Origin: Dehalococcoidia bacterium
GTDB lineage: Bacteria > Chloroflexota > Dehalococcoidia > Lucifugimonadales > JAGWBF01
Assembly (NCBI GenBank): GCA_963663025.1
Contig: OY760073.1
Span: 1,897,354-1,961,353 of the forward strand
Reading direction: 5' to 3'
DNA: 64,000 nucleotides
Position 1 is the first letter of the stretch. Every line of letters begins with the position of its first letter. This document shows positions 22,492 to 27,322 of the stretch, piece after piece. Position numbers and translations under genes: made by a program. A model generated the notes under the pieces. That model had not been told where the DNA came from and ran no database searches. It was given only the letters and a program-made list of their open reading frames with translations.

Positions 22492-23220
22492 CTTTATCCC
22501 CCTCACTCCAACCCTCTCCCGCCAGAGGAGAGGGGGCCCCAATATCTCCCCCCTCCCTTGATGGGAGGGGACTAAGGGGAGGGTGAAACACTGAAGGGAG
22601 CCATCCTGCTAGCCGGCAGCGCTCCGTCCTGGATTGCGGCCTCCGCCGCAATGACGAACAAGGTGGAGGGCGCCCATACCGTCCCACCTGCCCGTTCACC
22701 CTTCGAGGGCCTCAGGGCGAACGGACAGTATAAGGCCCACGCCCCCCGTTCGTGCTGAGCACCCCCTTCCGTTCGTGCTGAGGCTCTCGAAGCACGAAGG
22801 GACAAGCCGCCCCTACATTAGAGCCATCCTGGAACCCGGCAGCGCTCCGTCCTGGATTGCGGCCTTCGCCGCAATGACGAATAGCGTGGAGGCCGCCCAT
22901 ACCGTCCCACCTGCCCGTTCACCCTTCGAGAGCCTCAGGACAGGCTCAGCAGGAACGGGCCCCACCGTCATTGCGGCGTAGGCCGCAATCCAGGAAAGTC
23001 AGACCGGGAACAGCTGGTTGTGACGACCCCCCCACCGTCATTGCGGCGTAGGCCGCAATCCAGGAAAGTCAGACCGGGAACAGCTGGTTGTGACGACCCC
23101 CCCACCGTCATTGCGGCGTAGGCCGCAATCCAGGAAAGTCAGACCGGGAACAGCTGGGTATGACGAAAACCCCCCACCGTCATTGCGGCGTAGGCCGCAA
23201 TCCAGGAAACCTAGGTCGGG
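22492..23220. repeat. REP/BIME-like mosaic array 3 (includes 70-bp tandem)
   Basis: Modules C-D-A-B-B-A-B then four tandem module-A units. Confidence 0.9.
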
Positions 23221-23251: not shown

Positions 23252-23587
23252 TCAGGGCGGCCCAATAAGCCACGAACCGCCGTCAGCCTCAGTGATCCTC
23301 AGGCCGTGGGCCCTGGCGATGGCTTCGTGCACCGACGATAGCTCCGCAGGAGGATTGGCGAGTTCCAATAGCAGGTCGCGCCCGTGGCTTTGTGAAAGCT
23401 CGCCCATCGAGTGCAGCAGCTCATCGAAGAAGGATGGCGTAAATCCTTGGATTCCCGCAAAGTCCAGCGCCAAAGATTCCGCCGATTCATTCAACGCCTC
23501 CGCTATGCCCGCTCCCACATTCCTGGCCGTTGTCCTCGTGACAAGCAATTTGAATGCGACCATATCTGCGATGCCTATCATGCCCAC
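23252..23587 (-). CDS. STAS-like protein resembling DUF4325
   Basis: 111 aa; LALDFAGIQGFTPSFFDELL pattern; GGAGGTG RBS; 11 nt downstream of the ATPase gene. Confidence 0.65.
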   Translation of the reverse strand: MGMIGIADMVAFKLLVTRTTARNVGAGIAEALNESAESLALDFAGIQGFTPSFFDELLHSMGELSQSHGRDLLLELANPPAELSSVHEAIARAHGLRITEADGGSWLIGPP

Positions 23588-23598
23588 ACCTCCGCCCC

Positions 23599-24204
23599 TC
23601 AGCCCGGAATCGAAGCGTAAGCTAGCGTACCGGGAAACAACTTTGTACGCCGTGCCTGGCTCTGGAGTTCTTCCCCTATCTGAAGCACACCAATACCGGA
23701 CTGTATTAAGAGCTGCCTTTGCGCCTTTCGCACCTCTTCCACCACGCTGAATAGCCCCATACCCCTGGTGGGGTCCTGCGTTCCGCTTACCCGTTCCTGC
23801 ATAGCAACCTCAATCGCCACCCAGTCATAGGGCACCCGGGCCAACAGCGCAGGGTTCCGCTCCAGCGAGCGCCTGATCCCTATTCCTCCATCAGCTACGG
23901 CGCAGATGAACCGAGGCCCGTTGGCCGACTCCCGGTATTGGATATAACCGAAGGCGCCGACCTCGGATTCCGAGTGCTGGACTGCATTGAGCGCCAGCTC
24001 GGCGAAAGCGTCGGCCACCACTTGGTAAATGTTTGAAGCTCCAAGCCCGGAACCTGTCAGACCATCGATTACATCGTTGGCGACCTTCTCGACTTGGTAC
24101 TCGGATTCCAGATCGGTCAATGGCAAAATGAGCCTTTCAGTGCCTCCGCCTGGAACATCTCTATCGTCGATCGCCACTCCCTTTTCCTTCAGGATATCGA
24201 ACAT
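23599..24204 (-). pseudogene. 3' part of IS-disrupted STAS-GHKL ATPase gene (SpoIIAB/RsbW-like kinase domain)
   Basis: N-box ELALNAVQHS, G1 VADGGIGI, G2 TRGMGLF. The ATG at 24204 is internal to the reconstructed gene. Confidence 0.75.
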
Positions 24205-24374
24205 GCCAAGGGACTTCAGGTAGCTGGGTTCCGTTTGCTTCTAGTGTCTTGCCTATGGTAGCATTTCCGTATGGCTGAGTTTAACCACCGAGAAGGGATA
24301 TTGCGTTCAGTGTGAGATGAACAAACGGACGCCCTGGAGTATGCGGCTCCAGGGCGTCCAGACCAAGGGGGGCT

Positions 24375-24648
24375 ATGGAGATGCTGGTTAACGTCCTGTC
24401 GTTGGTACTTGGGTGTTCGGTTGTATTGGGGAGTTTCTTTGCTGGCTGGCTTCTAGGTGCGCTTCTGAATTCTGACTCTTGGGCGACGAGCATAGGTAGC
24501 ACGGCTCTACTCCTATGCGGATTTTTTGGCGTCGTCGCACTTGTACCTTTGCTACTATCCCAAGCATTATGAAGGTGAAACTCAACATGAAGGTTGAGAA
24601 GATTGCTAGGAGACTAGTAACATCCGTTACGCCGTGCTCAAACAGCAT
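24375..24648. other. small hydrophobic ORF(s) inside the IS, strand ambiguous
   Basis: Plus-strand 65-aa two-helix ORF (24375..24572). Overlapping minus-strand 86-aa ORF (24388..24648) has an AAGAGG RBS and a downstream hairpin at 24327-24359. I cannot decide between them. Confidence 0.3.
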
Positions 24649-24689
24649 AATTACCTCTTAGTGCAGAAGCTAGCTTACAACAAACACAA

Positions 24690-24977
24690 GTGTGGTTGTC
24701 AACTATGAGCAGGCGCAGGAAGAACGGAGACCTGACCGACTATGAGTTGGCTTGGGTTGTGCGGGAAGTTTCCAAGCTCACCAACAAGAGTTTCCGTGAG
24801 ATCGGAGAGAACCTTGCCAACGAAATGTCCGACAATGAGGATGTTCTCTCCGAGGATGACTTCGAGCTAGGGAACAACATCGCTGCCACGCTGGAAACGC
24901 TTTGGCCCAGAGAGGGATTATGGCAGCCTGGGCCGAATGCAGAGCGGGCATTGAAGCTAATCCAACGGGTGCTGTAG
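24690..24977 (+). CDS. IS accessory ORF (hypothetical)
   Basis: 95 aa (probably from ATG 24705), ends 9 nt before the transposase ATG; weak RBS. Confidence 0.4.
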   Translation: MWLSTMSRRRKNGDLTDYELAWVVREVSKLTNKSFREIGENLANEMSDNEDVLSEDDFELGNNIAATLETLWPREGLWQPGPNAERALKLIQRVL

Positions 24978-24985
24978 GAGCTCAC

Positions 24986-26146
24986 ATGACCGAGTTTACC
25001 GAGACCACAACCTACATCATCACCTGCCCCGACTGCCAGGGGAATAAGGTCAGGAAGCACGGCTTCCAGGCAGGGCAGCAACGCTATTTCTGCAAGGGCT
25101 GTAAAAAGGCGTTCCGTGCCAACGGCAAAGCCCAGGGCCGCAGAATGGACGCCGACATGGTGGGTTCCGCCATCAGGGACTACTACACTGGCAAAAGCTA
25201 CAAGCAGATTGCCGAAGGGCTGAAGAATGAGTACGACCTGGCGAAGGAGCCGAGCAAGGCCACCATCTATGAGAACGTGAGGGATTACACCACCAAGGCC
25301 GTTGGGGAGCTGAAAGACCACAAGGCCAAGACGGGCGGCCACTGGGTAGCCGATGAAATGCAGGTGGATGTGGGCGGGGAAAAGGTGTGGCTGTGGAACG
25401 TGATGGACTCCAAGACCCGCTACATTCTGGCATCCCATCTGACACCAAGACGGGATGCCCAAGCCGCCAGGGTGGTCTTGCGAAAGGCGGCGCTGGCGGC
25501 AGATAAGCCCCCCACAAGCATCACGACCGACAAGCTACGTTCCTACATTCCAGCCGTCAAGGATGTCATTCCCGAGTCCAAGCATATCCAGTCCGAGGGG
25601 ATGCGGGCCAAGGTCAACAACAACCTTTCGGAGCGTTTGCAAGGGACCTTCAGAGACCGCATAAAGACTTTGCGGGGCCTCGACAGCATCAAGACTGGTC
25701 AGCACTACCTCGACGGCTGGACGCTGACTTACAACCATTTCCGAGGCCATGAAAGCCTTGGGAATAAGACGCCAGGGGAGAAGGCGAAGATGAAGCCTCC
25801 GTTCAGGGAGTGGGCAGACGTGGTAAAAGCAGGGGCCGCAACCCTGCCGAAGGTAAAGGCGGGGAAGCGGCCATCGCTATCGTTACCGAAGTCGAGACAG
25901 CCAAAAGCCAGCCAGGATAAGGAAGCTGGCACGAAACGACGTGGACGCATCAAACCGCCCAAGCCTGTGTTGCCGAAGGTGGGACGGTCTCAAGCAGACC
26001 AGGGTAAGAAAGCTGGCAAGAGACCACGTGGTCTTATCGAACCGCCCAAGCCTGTGTTGCCGAAGGTGGGACGCCGTGCCAAGAAGCCTAAATCTCGAAC
26101 TCCCAGGTGGGCAAGAGTCATCCCACGTCTGCCACGACGGAATTAA
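24986..26146 (+). CDS. DDE transposase with N-terminal CxxC..CxxC zinc finger
   Basis: AGGAG 5 nt upstream of the ATG; CPDCQGNKVRKHGFQAGQQRYFCKGCKKAF. DDE-like blocks WVADEMQVDV, SITTDKLRSY, NNNLSERLQGTFRDR (IS6/IS240-type spacing). Basic C-terminal tail with a 29-aa tandem duplication. Confidence 0.85.
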   Translation: MTEFTETTTYIITCPDCQGNKVRKHGFQAGQQRYFCKGCKKAFRANGKAQGRRMDADMVGSAIRDYYTGKSYKQIAEGLKNEYDLAKEPSKATIYENVRDYTTKAVGELKDHKAKTGGHWVADEMQVDVGGEKVWLWNVMDSKTRYILASHLTPRRDAQAARVVLRKAALAADKPPTSITTDKLRSYIPAVKDVIPESKHIQSEGMRAKVNNNLSERLQGTFRDRIKTLRGLDSIKTGQHYLDGWTLTYNHFRGHESLGNKTPGEKAKMKPPFREWADVVKAGAATLPKVKAGKRPSLSLPKSRQPKASQDKEAGTKRRGRIKPPKPVLPKVGRSQADQGKKAGKRPRGLIEPPKPVLPKVGRRAKKPKSRTPRWARVIPRLPRRN

Positions 26147-26172
26147 CTGTCACTGGCCAGTGACAGTTAATT
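26141..26172. repeat. perfect 32-nt palindrome at the IS right end
   Basis: AATTAACTGTCACTGG|CCAGTGACAGTTAATT overlapping the transposase stop codon. Confidence 0.85.
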
Positions 26173-26209
26173 GGACGCAAAACGTCAAACACTACTAGCA
26201 AACGGAACC

Positions 26210-26450
26210 GGTAGCTGCACACCCCCATGTTTTCCGGCACGAGAAGGGTGCAGTCGCACCCCCTCCGTTTGGCCAGCAGGGAGTACACCAGGCACCACAT
26301 CACCGCCGAAGGTTCAATGAACTCGCAAGTCCGCAAATCAATCTCCACGCTGGATTCTCTGAACTCGGAAGCCCGGGGGTCTGGCACAGCGAACCCCTTC
26401 AAATTGCCTGGATGATTAAACCTGGGTAAGGGTACAAACCTCACAGGCAT
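26210..26450 (-). pseudogene. 5' part of IS-disrupted STAS-GHKL ATPase gene (STAS-like domain)
   Basis: MPVRF...IDLRTCEFIEPSAVMWCLVYSLLAKRRGCDCTLLVPENMGVCSY. Removing the IS plus one target-duplication copy joins it in frame to ...LKSLGMFDILKEKG of 23599..24204. Confidence 0.7.
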
Positions 26451-26564: not shown

Positions 26565-27322
26565 CTTTATCCCCCTCACCCCAGCCCTCTCCCACCAGGG
26601 GAGAGGGAGCCCCAATATCTCCCCCCTCCCTTGATGGGAGGGGACTAAGGGGAGGGTGAAGCACTGAAGGGAGCCATCCTGCTAGCCGGCAGCGCTCCGT
26701 CCTGGATTGCGGCCTTCGCCGCAATGACGAACAAGGTGGAGGGCGCCCCAGCCGTTCGTGCTGAGGCTCTCGAAGCACGAAGGGAGGGTGAAGGACGAAC
26801 CCCACCGTCATTGCGGCGTAGGCCGCAATCCAGGAAACACAGGCCGGGAACAGGCCGCCCATACCGTCCCCCCTGTCCGTTCGCCCTTCGAGTCCCCTCA
26901 GGGTGAACGGCTGTACAGGCCCACGCCCCCCGATTCTCCCCTTCGAGTCCCCTCAGGGCGAACGGGCAATGCGGCTGACTCCCCCCGTTCGTGCTGAGCA
27001 CCCCCTGTCCGTTCGTGCTGAGGCTCTCGAAGCACGAAGGGGCAGACCGCCCCTGCACTAGAGCCATCCTGGAACCCGGCAGCGCTCCGTCCTGGATTGC
27101 GGCCTACGCCGCAATGACGAATATCCTTGCAATGATGAAAAGCCTGGGGGGCCCAGGGCCAGGAAGGCGTCGGGGGTGAAGACAACGCCCCCACCGTCAT
27201 TGCGGCGTAGGCCTCAATCCAGGAAACCTAGGCCGGAGGCAGGCCGCCCATACCGTCTCCCCTGCCCGTTCACCCTTCGAGAGCCTCAGGGCGAACGGAC
27301 GGCTTCCCTCAGGGTGAACGGA
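26565..27322. repeat. REP/BIME-like mosaic array 4
   Basis: Modules C-D-A-B-A-B-B-B-A-A-B; first 184 bp nearly identical to 22492..22675. Confidence 0.9.

Follow-up and report, generated by a model that had tools for sequence, protein, structure and literature searches.

A putative cargo-carrying insertion sequence of the IS6 zinc-finger branch splits a GHKL ATPase gene in a Dehalococcoidia bacterium

The DNA studied here, referred to as the window, is a stretch of 64,000 nucleotides from a Dehalococcoidia bacterium (GenBank assembly GCA_963663025.1, contig OY760073.1, positions 1,897,354 to 1,961,353 of the forward strand). It contains a 1,983-bp insertion sequence (IS), which lies between two copies of an 8-bp target-site duplication and separates the two parts of a gene for a predicted GHKL-type ATPase. 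Within its inverted repeats the element carries the gene of a transposase with an N-terminal zinc ribbon and, directly upstream of it, a second gene for a protein of 90 amino acids (aa). The main features of the locus are given below in window positions; ORF stands for open reading frame.

24227–26209, plus strand: whole element, 1,983 bp, classed as an IS6-family cargo-carrying IS, one copy in this genome
24219–24226, no strand: left copy of the target-site duplication, GGTAGCTG, 8 bp (sequence reading)
26210–26217, no strand: right copy of the target-site duplication, GGTAGCTG, 8 bp (sequence reading)
24227–24247, plus strand: left inverted repeat (IRL), GGTTCCGTTTGCTTCTAGTGT, 21 nt (repeat finder, 90% complementary pair)
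26189–26209, minus strand: right inverted repeat (IRR), 21 nt, reverse complement GGTTCCGTTTGCTAGTAGTGT (repeat finder)
24705–24977, plus strand: 90-aa accessory gene, 'orf95' (homologues, purifying selection, synteny with the transposase)
24986–26146, plus strand: transposase, 386 aa (C4 zinc ribbon, IS6/IS240 DDE core, basic Pro/Lys-rich C-terminal tail)
26210–26450, minus strand: 5′ fragment of the target gene, codons 1 to about 81 (restored ORF, homologues)
23599–24226, minus strand: 3′ fragment of the target gene with the GHKL ATPase domain (restored ORF, structure model)
23252–23587, minus strand: partner gene of the target, DUF4325 (STAS-like), 111 aa (PF14213, 23.2 bits against a cutoff of 23)

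The IRL and IRR agree at 19 of 21 positions. They begin with GGTTCCGTTTGC (GG-initiated) and fall within the ~14–36 bp range of IS6 inverted repeats in the family table of PMC6807381, and the first 12 nt of the IRL are common to the related elements described below. GGTAGCTG occurs three times in the 64-kb window, with two of the occurrences flanking the element, and the chance of an identical 8-mer at two pre-specified positions is ~1/65,536. A preliminary description of the locus had already proposed the inverted repeats, the 8-bp duplication and the size of 1,983 bp. All of these hold, with the arms extended to 21 nt, and its remark that the element is lower in G+C than the surroundings is likewise correct (55.0% against 62.3% for the window). 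Within the element, the G+C content is 51% for the left 759 bp and 58% for the transposase gene. Most related elements also have a G+C content below that of their flanks in their own hosts.

When the flanks are joined with one copy of the repeat, an open minus-strand ORF of 286 aa is obtained, in which ...ENMGVCSY is followed by LKSLGMFDILKEKG..., and this places the insertion at codons 78–81. The earlier claim that removal of the IS and one repeat copy rejoins the fragments in frame, giving a protein of about 286 aa, is therefore confirmed. The "frame-preserving position" of the preliminary description is no property of the site, since excision of any clean insertion together with one repeat copy restores the frame. 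At present the gene consists of two pieces, of 80 and 206 codons, with the element antisense to it, and is thus inactivated; gene callers report its 3′ fragment as a 201-aa ORF starting at Met86.

A search with the restored protein gave 525 homologues at E ≤ 0.001. Among the top 120, most are 283–290 aa long and cover 92–100% of the fused protein, with a few shorter entries, one of them the 201-aa fragment from the window itself. In G003, a genome that belongs to the same genus, the homologous gene is uninterrupted, encodes a protein 77% identical to the restored one and has no indel at the insertion site; nucleotide collinearity between the two loci extends through the insertion point and includes the downstream DUF4325 gene. 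Uninterrupted homologues of the fused protein, whose absence the preliminary description would have counted against an insertion, do exist. Of its family's 42 invariant residues the fused protein retains every one, and of the 51 near-invariant ones it retains 50; no decay is detectable. The identical duplications and the 42 retained invariant residues are consistent with a recent insertion.

The transposase ATG is preceded by AGGAG. The zinc ribbon is formed by Cys14, Cys17, Cys36 and Cys39, and the catalytic residues are Asp123, Asp182 and Glu216, plus Lys227. All eight residues, together with Asn212-Asn213-Leu214, are invariant when the transposase is aligned with ISCpe7 and five relatives from metagenomes. 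The distance is 59 residues from Asp123 to Asp182 and 34 residues from Asp182 to Glu216, i.e. a DD(34)E arrangement, and the NNNLSE motif is present. The Pfam family DDE_Tnp_IS240 (PF13610) is matched with 80.1 bits against a cutoff of 27 (E value 2e-22). Among NCBIfam families the best match is transpos_IS6 (NF033587), over profile positions 2–202 of 202 with 124 bits against a cutoff of 125, followed by IS1 with 67.6 bits against a cutoff of 100. Two models of N-terminal zinc-binding domains are passed, NF050000 with 36.8 bits (cutoff 28) and NF048018 with 34.5 bits (cutoff 27); the zinc-domain models matched are those of the IS1/IS1595 and IS256 types. In a plasmid collection, all the annotated relatives are IS6-family or ISCpe7 transposases with 25–30% identity, and the closest named relative is ISCpe7 (~30% identity over residues 14–267, E value 4e-21). 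Both the assignment to the IS6-type DDE transposases (now resting on PF13610, the best NCBIfam match, DD(34)E, NNNLSE and the 8-bp duplication) and the N-terminal CxxC..CxxC finger (a zinc-ribbon model above the NCBIfam cutoff) had been anticipated in the preliminary description.

The wider family of the transposase comprises 1,114 proteins at E ≤ 0.001, the nearest of which is 73% identical. These proteins are typically 350–390 aa long, so that the clade as a whole shares the basic Pro/Lys-rich C-terminal tail. Private to the window's copy is an in-frame tandem duplication of 2 × 87 nt in the tail (25882–26055, plus strand; repeat finder and alignment), which adds 29 aa without counterpart in the aligned relatives, the motif PPKPVLPKVGR being present in each repeat. 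The two repeats are just 77% identical in nucleotides, so the duplication is not new.

The 95-aa ORF noted earlier upstream of the transposase most likely encodes 90 aa from the ATG at 24705. Its stop codon lies 8 nt before the transposase ATG and overlaps the AGGAG ribosome-binding site of the transposase. The homologues of the 90-aa protein are ~91 aa long with 57–79% identity, and pairwise ratios of nonsynonymous to synonymous substitution (dN/dS) are 0.15–0.26 between distinct elements and 0.29 for two near-identical copies in CRJ. The gene is directly upstream of the transposase in the G005, CRJ_37 and CRJ_40 elements, and also upstream, ~735 bp off, in the G142 element; the transposases that it accompanies are 45–78% identical to that of the window. 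Judged from these comparisons, the 90-aa ORF is a real gene under purifying selection. The family is small: a set of 5.8 billion proteins yielded 10 homologues, a full hidden Markov model search of 1.84 billion yielded 20 cluster representatives, and 2 of 401 sampled genomes of the class have the gene. The protein has no match among Pfam, NCBIfam or PADLOC families, and its model, a four-helix bundle with a predicted local distance difference test score (pLDDT) of 76, has no significant match in the PDB. The G021 and G001a elements lack the gene and have a small membrane protein in the same position. The 90-aa gene is therefore dispensable for mobility, and its product would be a non-essential accessory or regulator of transposition. 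With this gene inside its ends the element qualifies as a cargo-carrying IS ('tIS'), though the gene may be either cargo or a transposition accessory.

Related elements, at least eight of them complete (2.5–4.1 kb), were found in Dehalococcoidia metagenome-assembled genomes. Their transposases are 60–78% identical to that of the window, their ends read GGTT(C/T)CGTTTGC, and each has its own perfect 8-bp duplication. One more distant element is included in the following list.

G021 copy 1: 2,716 bp, duplication CCCCGCTT
G021 copy 2: 2,716 bp, duplication GCTCGTGG
G020 element: 3,193 bp, duplication CGCCGGAA
G016 element: 3,372 bp, duplication AAGATGAC
G005 element: 3,555 bp, duplication TTCCTGGG
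OZ247426 element: 4,106 bp, duplication CATAGCGG
Distant element, transposase 45% identical: 2,530 bp, 35-nt perfect ends, duplication ATTTTTAG

Counting a miniature element in the window's own genome (see below), eight further 8-bp duplications were found in total. The recurrence of the ends and of 8-bp repeats at other copies, which had been put forward as a check on the insertion, is thereby established for the miniature element and the related Dehalococcoidia elements. Transposases of this type (E ≤ 1e-40) are present in 33 of the 401 sampled genomes of the class and in 23 of 223 genera. The larger relatives carry as cargo a DNA methylase fused to an HNH or Mrr-type nuclease, and further an HNH-ResIII helicase, a TPR lipoprotein and small membrane proteins. 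The earlier statement that the element is about twice the usual IS6 size does not carry over to its own clade, in which it is the smallest member found, with relatives of 2.5–4.1 kb.

The element is present once in its 2.35-Mb, one-contig genome, and neither further full copies nor other transposase homologues were found there. The same genome holds the following sequences related to its ends.

G000:C1:738060–738481 (locus L055 561–982): miniature element of 422 bp, resembling a miniature inverted-repeat transposable element (MITE), with the same ends as the element (GGTTCCGTTTGCTTTTAG) and a perfect 8-bp duplication, TGGTGGGG
G000:C1:1309782–1309851 and 2137893–2137961: back-to-back pairs of left and right ends, ~70 bp, without flanking duplication
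G000:C1 295849 and 2136676: solo ends (end-sequence search)

A transposase of this type presumably moves the miniature element in trans. The ~70-bp end pairs could be deletion derivatives or products of excision or recombination; a similar 70-bp end pair is seen in G001 (L021 8222–8291).

We hold with high confidence that the locus contains an intact-looking, single-copy, cargo-carrying IS of the IS6 zinc-finger branch, which inserted antisense into a GHKL ATPase gene, duplicated 8 bp of the target and inactivated the gene. The insertion itself is an ordinary event. With less than 80% identity to anything found, the element is a new IS in this branch. By analogy with the IS26 paradigm, replicative 'copy-in' would generate a cointegrate with the donor replicon (PMC6807381, PMC7986276), and homologous recombination would then resolve the cointegrate, leaving one copy between the 8-bp repeats. 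Several points weigh against the main reading of the locus. The NCBIfam IS6 model falls one bit short of its cutoff, the identity to any named IS6 member is just ~30%, and Harmer and Hall doubt that the zinc-finger clades VII and VIII share IS26's family (PMC6807381). Movement of this element by the IS6/IS26 route is itself presumed by analogy. A near-identical genome with an empty site was not found, the closest target homologue being 77% identical. Present-day activity is unproven, because there is a single copy, the inverted repeats have two mismatches and the transposase tail carries the 29-aa duplication.

The last of these points leads to the question of whether the element is a dead relic, that is, a single arrival which is no longer mobile and persists as a fixed pseudogenising scar rather than as an active IS. 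This seems to us rather unlikely, although it is favoured by one copy without any other transposase homologue in a 2.35-Mb genome, two mismatched positions in the inverted repeats and a private, no longer new tail duplication, and the solo ends and duplication-free end pairs elsewhere in the genome do resemble the debris of older activity. Against it stand a full-length transposase ORF with all catalytic and zinc-binding residues intact, an intact 90-aa gene, a perfect target duplication and target halves without decay.

It appears improbable that the element stands outside IS6, as a separate family or an IS1-like or ISNCY-type lineage with just the RNase-H-fold DDE core and the 8-bp duplications in common. 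The narrowly missed IS6 cutoff, the identity of at most 30% to IS6 members and the published doubt on clades VII and VIII would all fit such a placement, as would the match to the IS1 model, the zinc ribbon of IS1/IS1595 type, and the presence of two genes and cargo where classical IS6 elements have one gene. However, IS6 is by far the best full-length model and IS1 remains well under its cutoff, all annotated database relatives are named IS6 or ISCpe7, and NNNLSE...K, DD(34)E, the GG-initiated inverted repeats of ~20 nt and the 8-bp duplication fit IS6. Least of all can we believe in an assembly artefact, or in a minority variant of the population caught in the consensus. The source is a metagenome-assembled genome, and the element is 7 points under its surroundings in G+C; yet a chimeric join would not yield a perfect 8-bp duplication, family-typical ends and an exactly restored conserved ORF, and the lower G+C is shared by most of the relatives.

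Compared with known systems, the element is closest to ISCpe7 and the zinc-finger clades of IS6 (h/i of Varani et al. 2021; VII/VIII of Harmer and Hall 2019). Like them, it has an N-terminal CxxC...CxxC before the helix-turn-helix and the DDE core, an 8-bp target duplication and short inverted repeats. The zinc-finger clades are known from Clostridia, as single-gene elements of 1.2–1.8 kb (PMC6807381, PMC7986276), whereas the present element comes from Dehalococcoidia. Its transposase ends in a basic tail of ~100 aa and has one zinc ribbon, where the ISCpe7 protein in the alignment contains an additional cysteine-rich insert. The element also differs in having a further conserved gene and a cargo slot. 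With IS26 and IS257 the element shares the DDE fold, the NNxxE...K/R motif, 8-bp duplications and the presumed copy-in cointegrate route (PMC6807381, PMC7986276). Classical IS6 elements, however, are 789–880 bp long (PMC6807381), with one ORF of 213–254 aa, no zinc finger and no internal cargo, and the identity of this transposase to IS6-annotated plasmid transposases is ~25–30%. The usual IS6 trait of a compact single-ORF element of ~0.8 kb, or at most 1.8 kb in the zinc-finger clades, thus does not apply to an element of 1,983 bp with two supported genes.

The sole IS6 member recorded with a passenger gene, for a hypothetical protein, is ISDsp3 of Dehalococcoides sp. BAV1 (Varani et al., PMC7986276). 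It is 1,456 bp long, has a 319-aa transposase and an 8-bp duplication, lies outside the main clades and is reportedly without an intact zinc finger (PMC6807381). Compared by description only, ISDsp3 resembles the present element in the passenger gene, the bacterial class and the 8-bp duplication, and differs from it in size, in the length of the transposase and in the reported lack of the zinc finger. Small complete genomes of the same class encode transposases ~31–38% identical to the one described here, and these may be of the ISDsp3 type. The element described here belongs to a variant of the IS6 zinc-finger branch that has two genes and carries cargo, and for this variant the literature searched contains essentially no description.

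A further proposal goes beyond the single insertion, and we put it forward tentatively and with some doubt. The element might be the minimal representative of a lineage of IS6-like transposons that has not been described before, characterised by a cargo slot, a two-gene core and a palindrome, which spreads restriction/defence-type genes, the 90-aa protein being a new regulator of transposition. The cargo slot of such a lineage would be modular, would lie between the left end and the transposase, and would hold, depending on the member, a methylase fused to HNH or to Mrr, an HNH-helicase, or lipoproteins and small membrane proteins. Its lineage-specific core would consist of the four-helix 90-aa protein and the zinc-finger DDE transposase with the basic tail, and a structurally conserved perfect palindrome would precede the right end. 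The lineage has so far been seen only in Dehalococcoidia/Chloroflexota. If this proposal is true, the lineage is a vehicle for restriction/defence-type genes among uncultured Dehalococcoidia/Chloroflexota.

For annotation, the consequence is direct: a 201-aa "hypothetical protein", an 80-codon stub and an IS together represent a single 286-aa ATPase gene that a transposon has knocked out. Where the IS6 reviews record ISDsp3 as the one cargo-carrying member, there are here at least nine related elements of 2–4 kb with 8-bp duplications, which bear an additional conserved gene and diverse cargo, much of the cargo being of the restriction-modification or nuclease type. This set of elements bears on how an IS6-type "copy-in" transposase accommodates internal cargo, on the role of the 90-aa partner and on the movement of defence-like genes in Dehalococcoidia, a group without genetic tools.

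The palindrome in question (26141–26172, no strand; repeat finder) is perfect, 32 nt long and overlaps the transposase stop codon. A perfect palindrome of 28–32 nt between the transposase stop and the IRR is present in nine of 11 aligned elements. Its position and perfection are conserved, its sequence is unrelated between elements, and no T-run follows it. Because the sequence differs among members, a structural role is indicated, either as a terminator or as a protein-binding hairpin; the place just past the transposase stop would suit a terminator-like role. The other internal features, all in the left part of the element, are listed here.

24256–24264, plus strand: subterminal motif TGGTAGCAT, identical or near-identical at the same offset in the G020, G001b, CRJ and G142 elements
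24326–24360, no strand: hairpin with a G+C-rich stem of 13–14 bp, in the unique left segment (repeat finder)
24375–24572, plus strand: hydrophobic ORF of 65 aa, unsupported as a gene (no homologue)
24594–24623, plus strand: promoter-like site TTGAGA-18-TAACAT upstream of the 90-aa gene (consensus match only)

The left ~440 bp (24265–24704) are unique to the window's element. This segment has no nucleotide or translated similarity to the related elements or to the rest of the window, and no remnant of a methylase cargo was found in it. TGGTAGCAT, ~30 nt inside the IRL, may be an inward-facing extended -10 element. The hairpin at 24326–24360 looks like a terminator for minus-strand transcription. 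With regard to the promoter-like site, one such site was found, against 0.8 in shuffled sequence. For the 65-aa hydrophobic ORF, neither Pfam nor NCBIfam gives a family, and the related elements contain no homologue (blastn, tblastx and blastp). The small membrane proteins encoded upstream of the G021 and G001 transposases are not homologues of it either, and it was rejected as a gene. Of the extra ORFs pointed out earlier upstream of the transposase, then, the 95-aa (90-aa) one stands as a gene and the hydrophobic one exists as an ORF only. An outward hybrid promoter as in IS26/IS257 was also dropped as a candidate, neither end having a convincing outward -35 by eye.

The GHKL ATPase domain claimed earlier for the interrupted gene is supported by the fold of its 77%-identical homologue. 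The AlphaFold2 model of this protein (G003 type) has a pLDDT of 89 and a predicted template modelling score (pTM) of 0.90. For the C-terminal domain, Foldseek finds CheA P4 with a probability of 0.99 and SpoIIAB (1l0o_A) with a probability of 1.00, a target-normalised template modelling score (TM-score) of 0.70 and a root-mean-square deviation of 3.8 Å. Pfam HATPase_c_2 is detected in 26 of 35 homologues; the GHKL-type Pfam score of the window's own protein is sub-threshold (18.8 bits against a cutoff of 27.4). The N-terminal ~100 aa are conserved and alpha/beta in the model, in which the fold search is dominated by the GHKL domain. A STAS domain in this N-terminal part gains no support from the searches made, with no Pfam STAS match in 35 homologues, no sequence match of its profile in the PDB and an hhalign probability of 0.06% against the DUF4325 neighbour. 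The STAS-like label comes from the neighbouring DUF4325 gene, which starts 11 nt past the target stop codon. PADLOC defence models match neither the target nor its partner nor the proteins of the element.

By its fold, the target is an anti-sigma-factor-like GHKL ATPase, and its gene forms a cassette of two with that of the DUF4325 STAS-like protein. It resembles the anti-sigma factor kinases of the SpoIIAB/RsbW type in the GHKL ATPase fold of its C-terminal domain and in the STAS-like DUF4325 gene next to it. Unlike these kinases, it has the additional conserved N-terminal domain of ~100 aa, without detectable family. Since the element is antisense and the partner begins so close to the target stop, the insertion probably lowers the expression of the DUF4325 partner through polarity.

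The cassette occurs in just two of six genomes of the genus, and no flanks are shared in G003. Two direct repeats of 191 nt, 95% identical, bracket the two-gene cassette together with the IS (22492–22682 and 26565–26755). They are composed of hairpin modules resembling repetitive extragenic palindromic (REP) sequences, which are common in this region.

Among the related elements, the methylase-Mrr gene is frameshifted at a G-run (...GGGGG...) in the G001b, G020 and CRJ_37 elements (loci L034, L025 and L037). For these three independent elements, the frameshift may reflect either a homopolymer error in long-read assembly or a tract that is phase-variable. In several larger relatives, the end sequence occurs a third time, internally, with the cargo on one side and the transposase on the other (L022 4464–4475, L026 7573–7584 and L024 6798–6809), and this suggests that cargo was captured by fusion of two end-bounded units. 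In G001, two inverted related copies lie 40 kb apart (G001:C1 ~1,491,400 and ~1,531,400; L021/L022) with their right ends outward. The same 8-mer, CGAAATTG, is present on the outer flank of both, and the arrangement is consistent with a 41-kb composite unit or an IS-mediated rearrangement.

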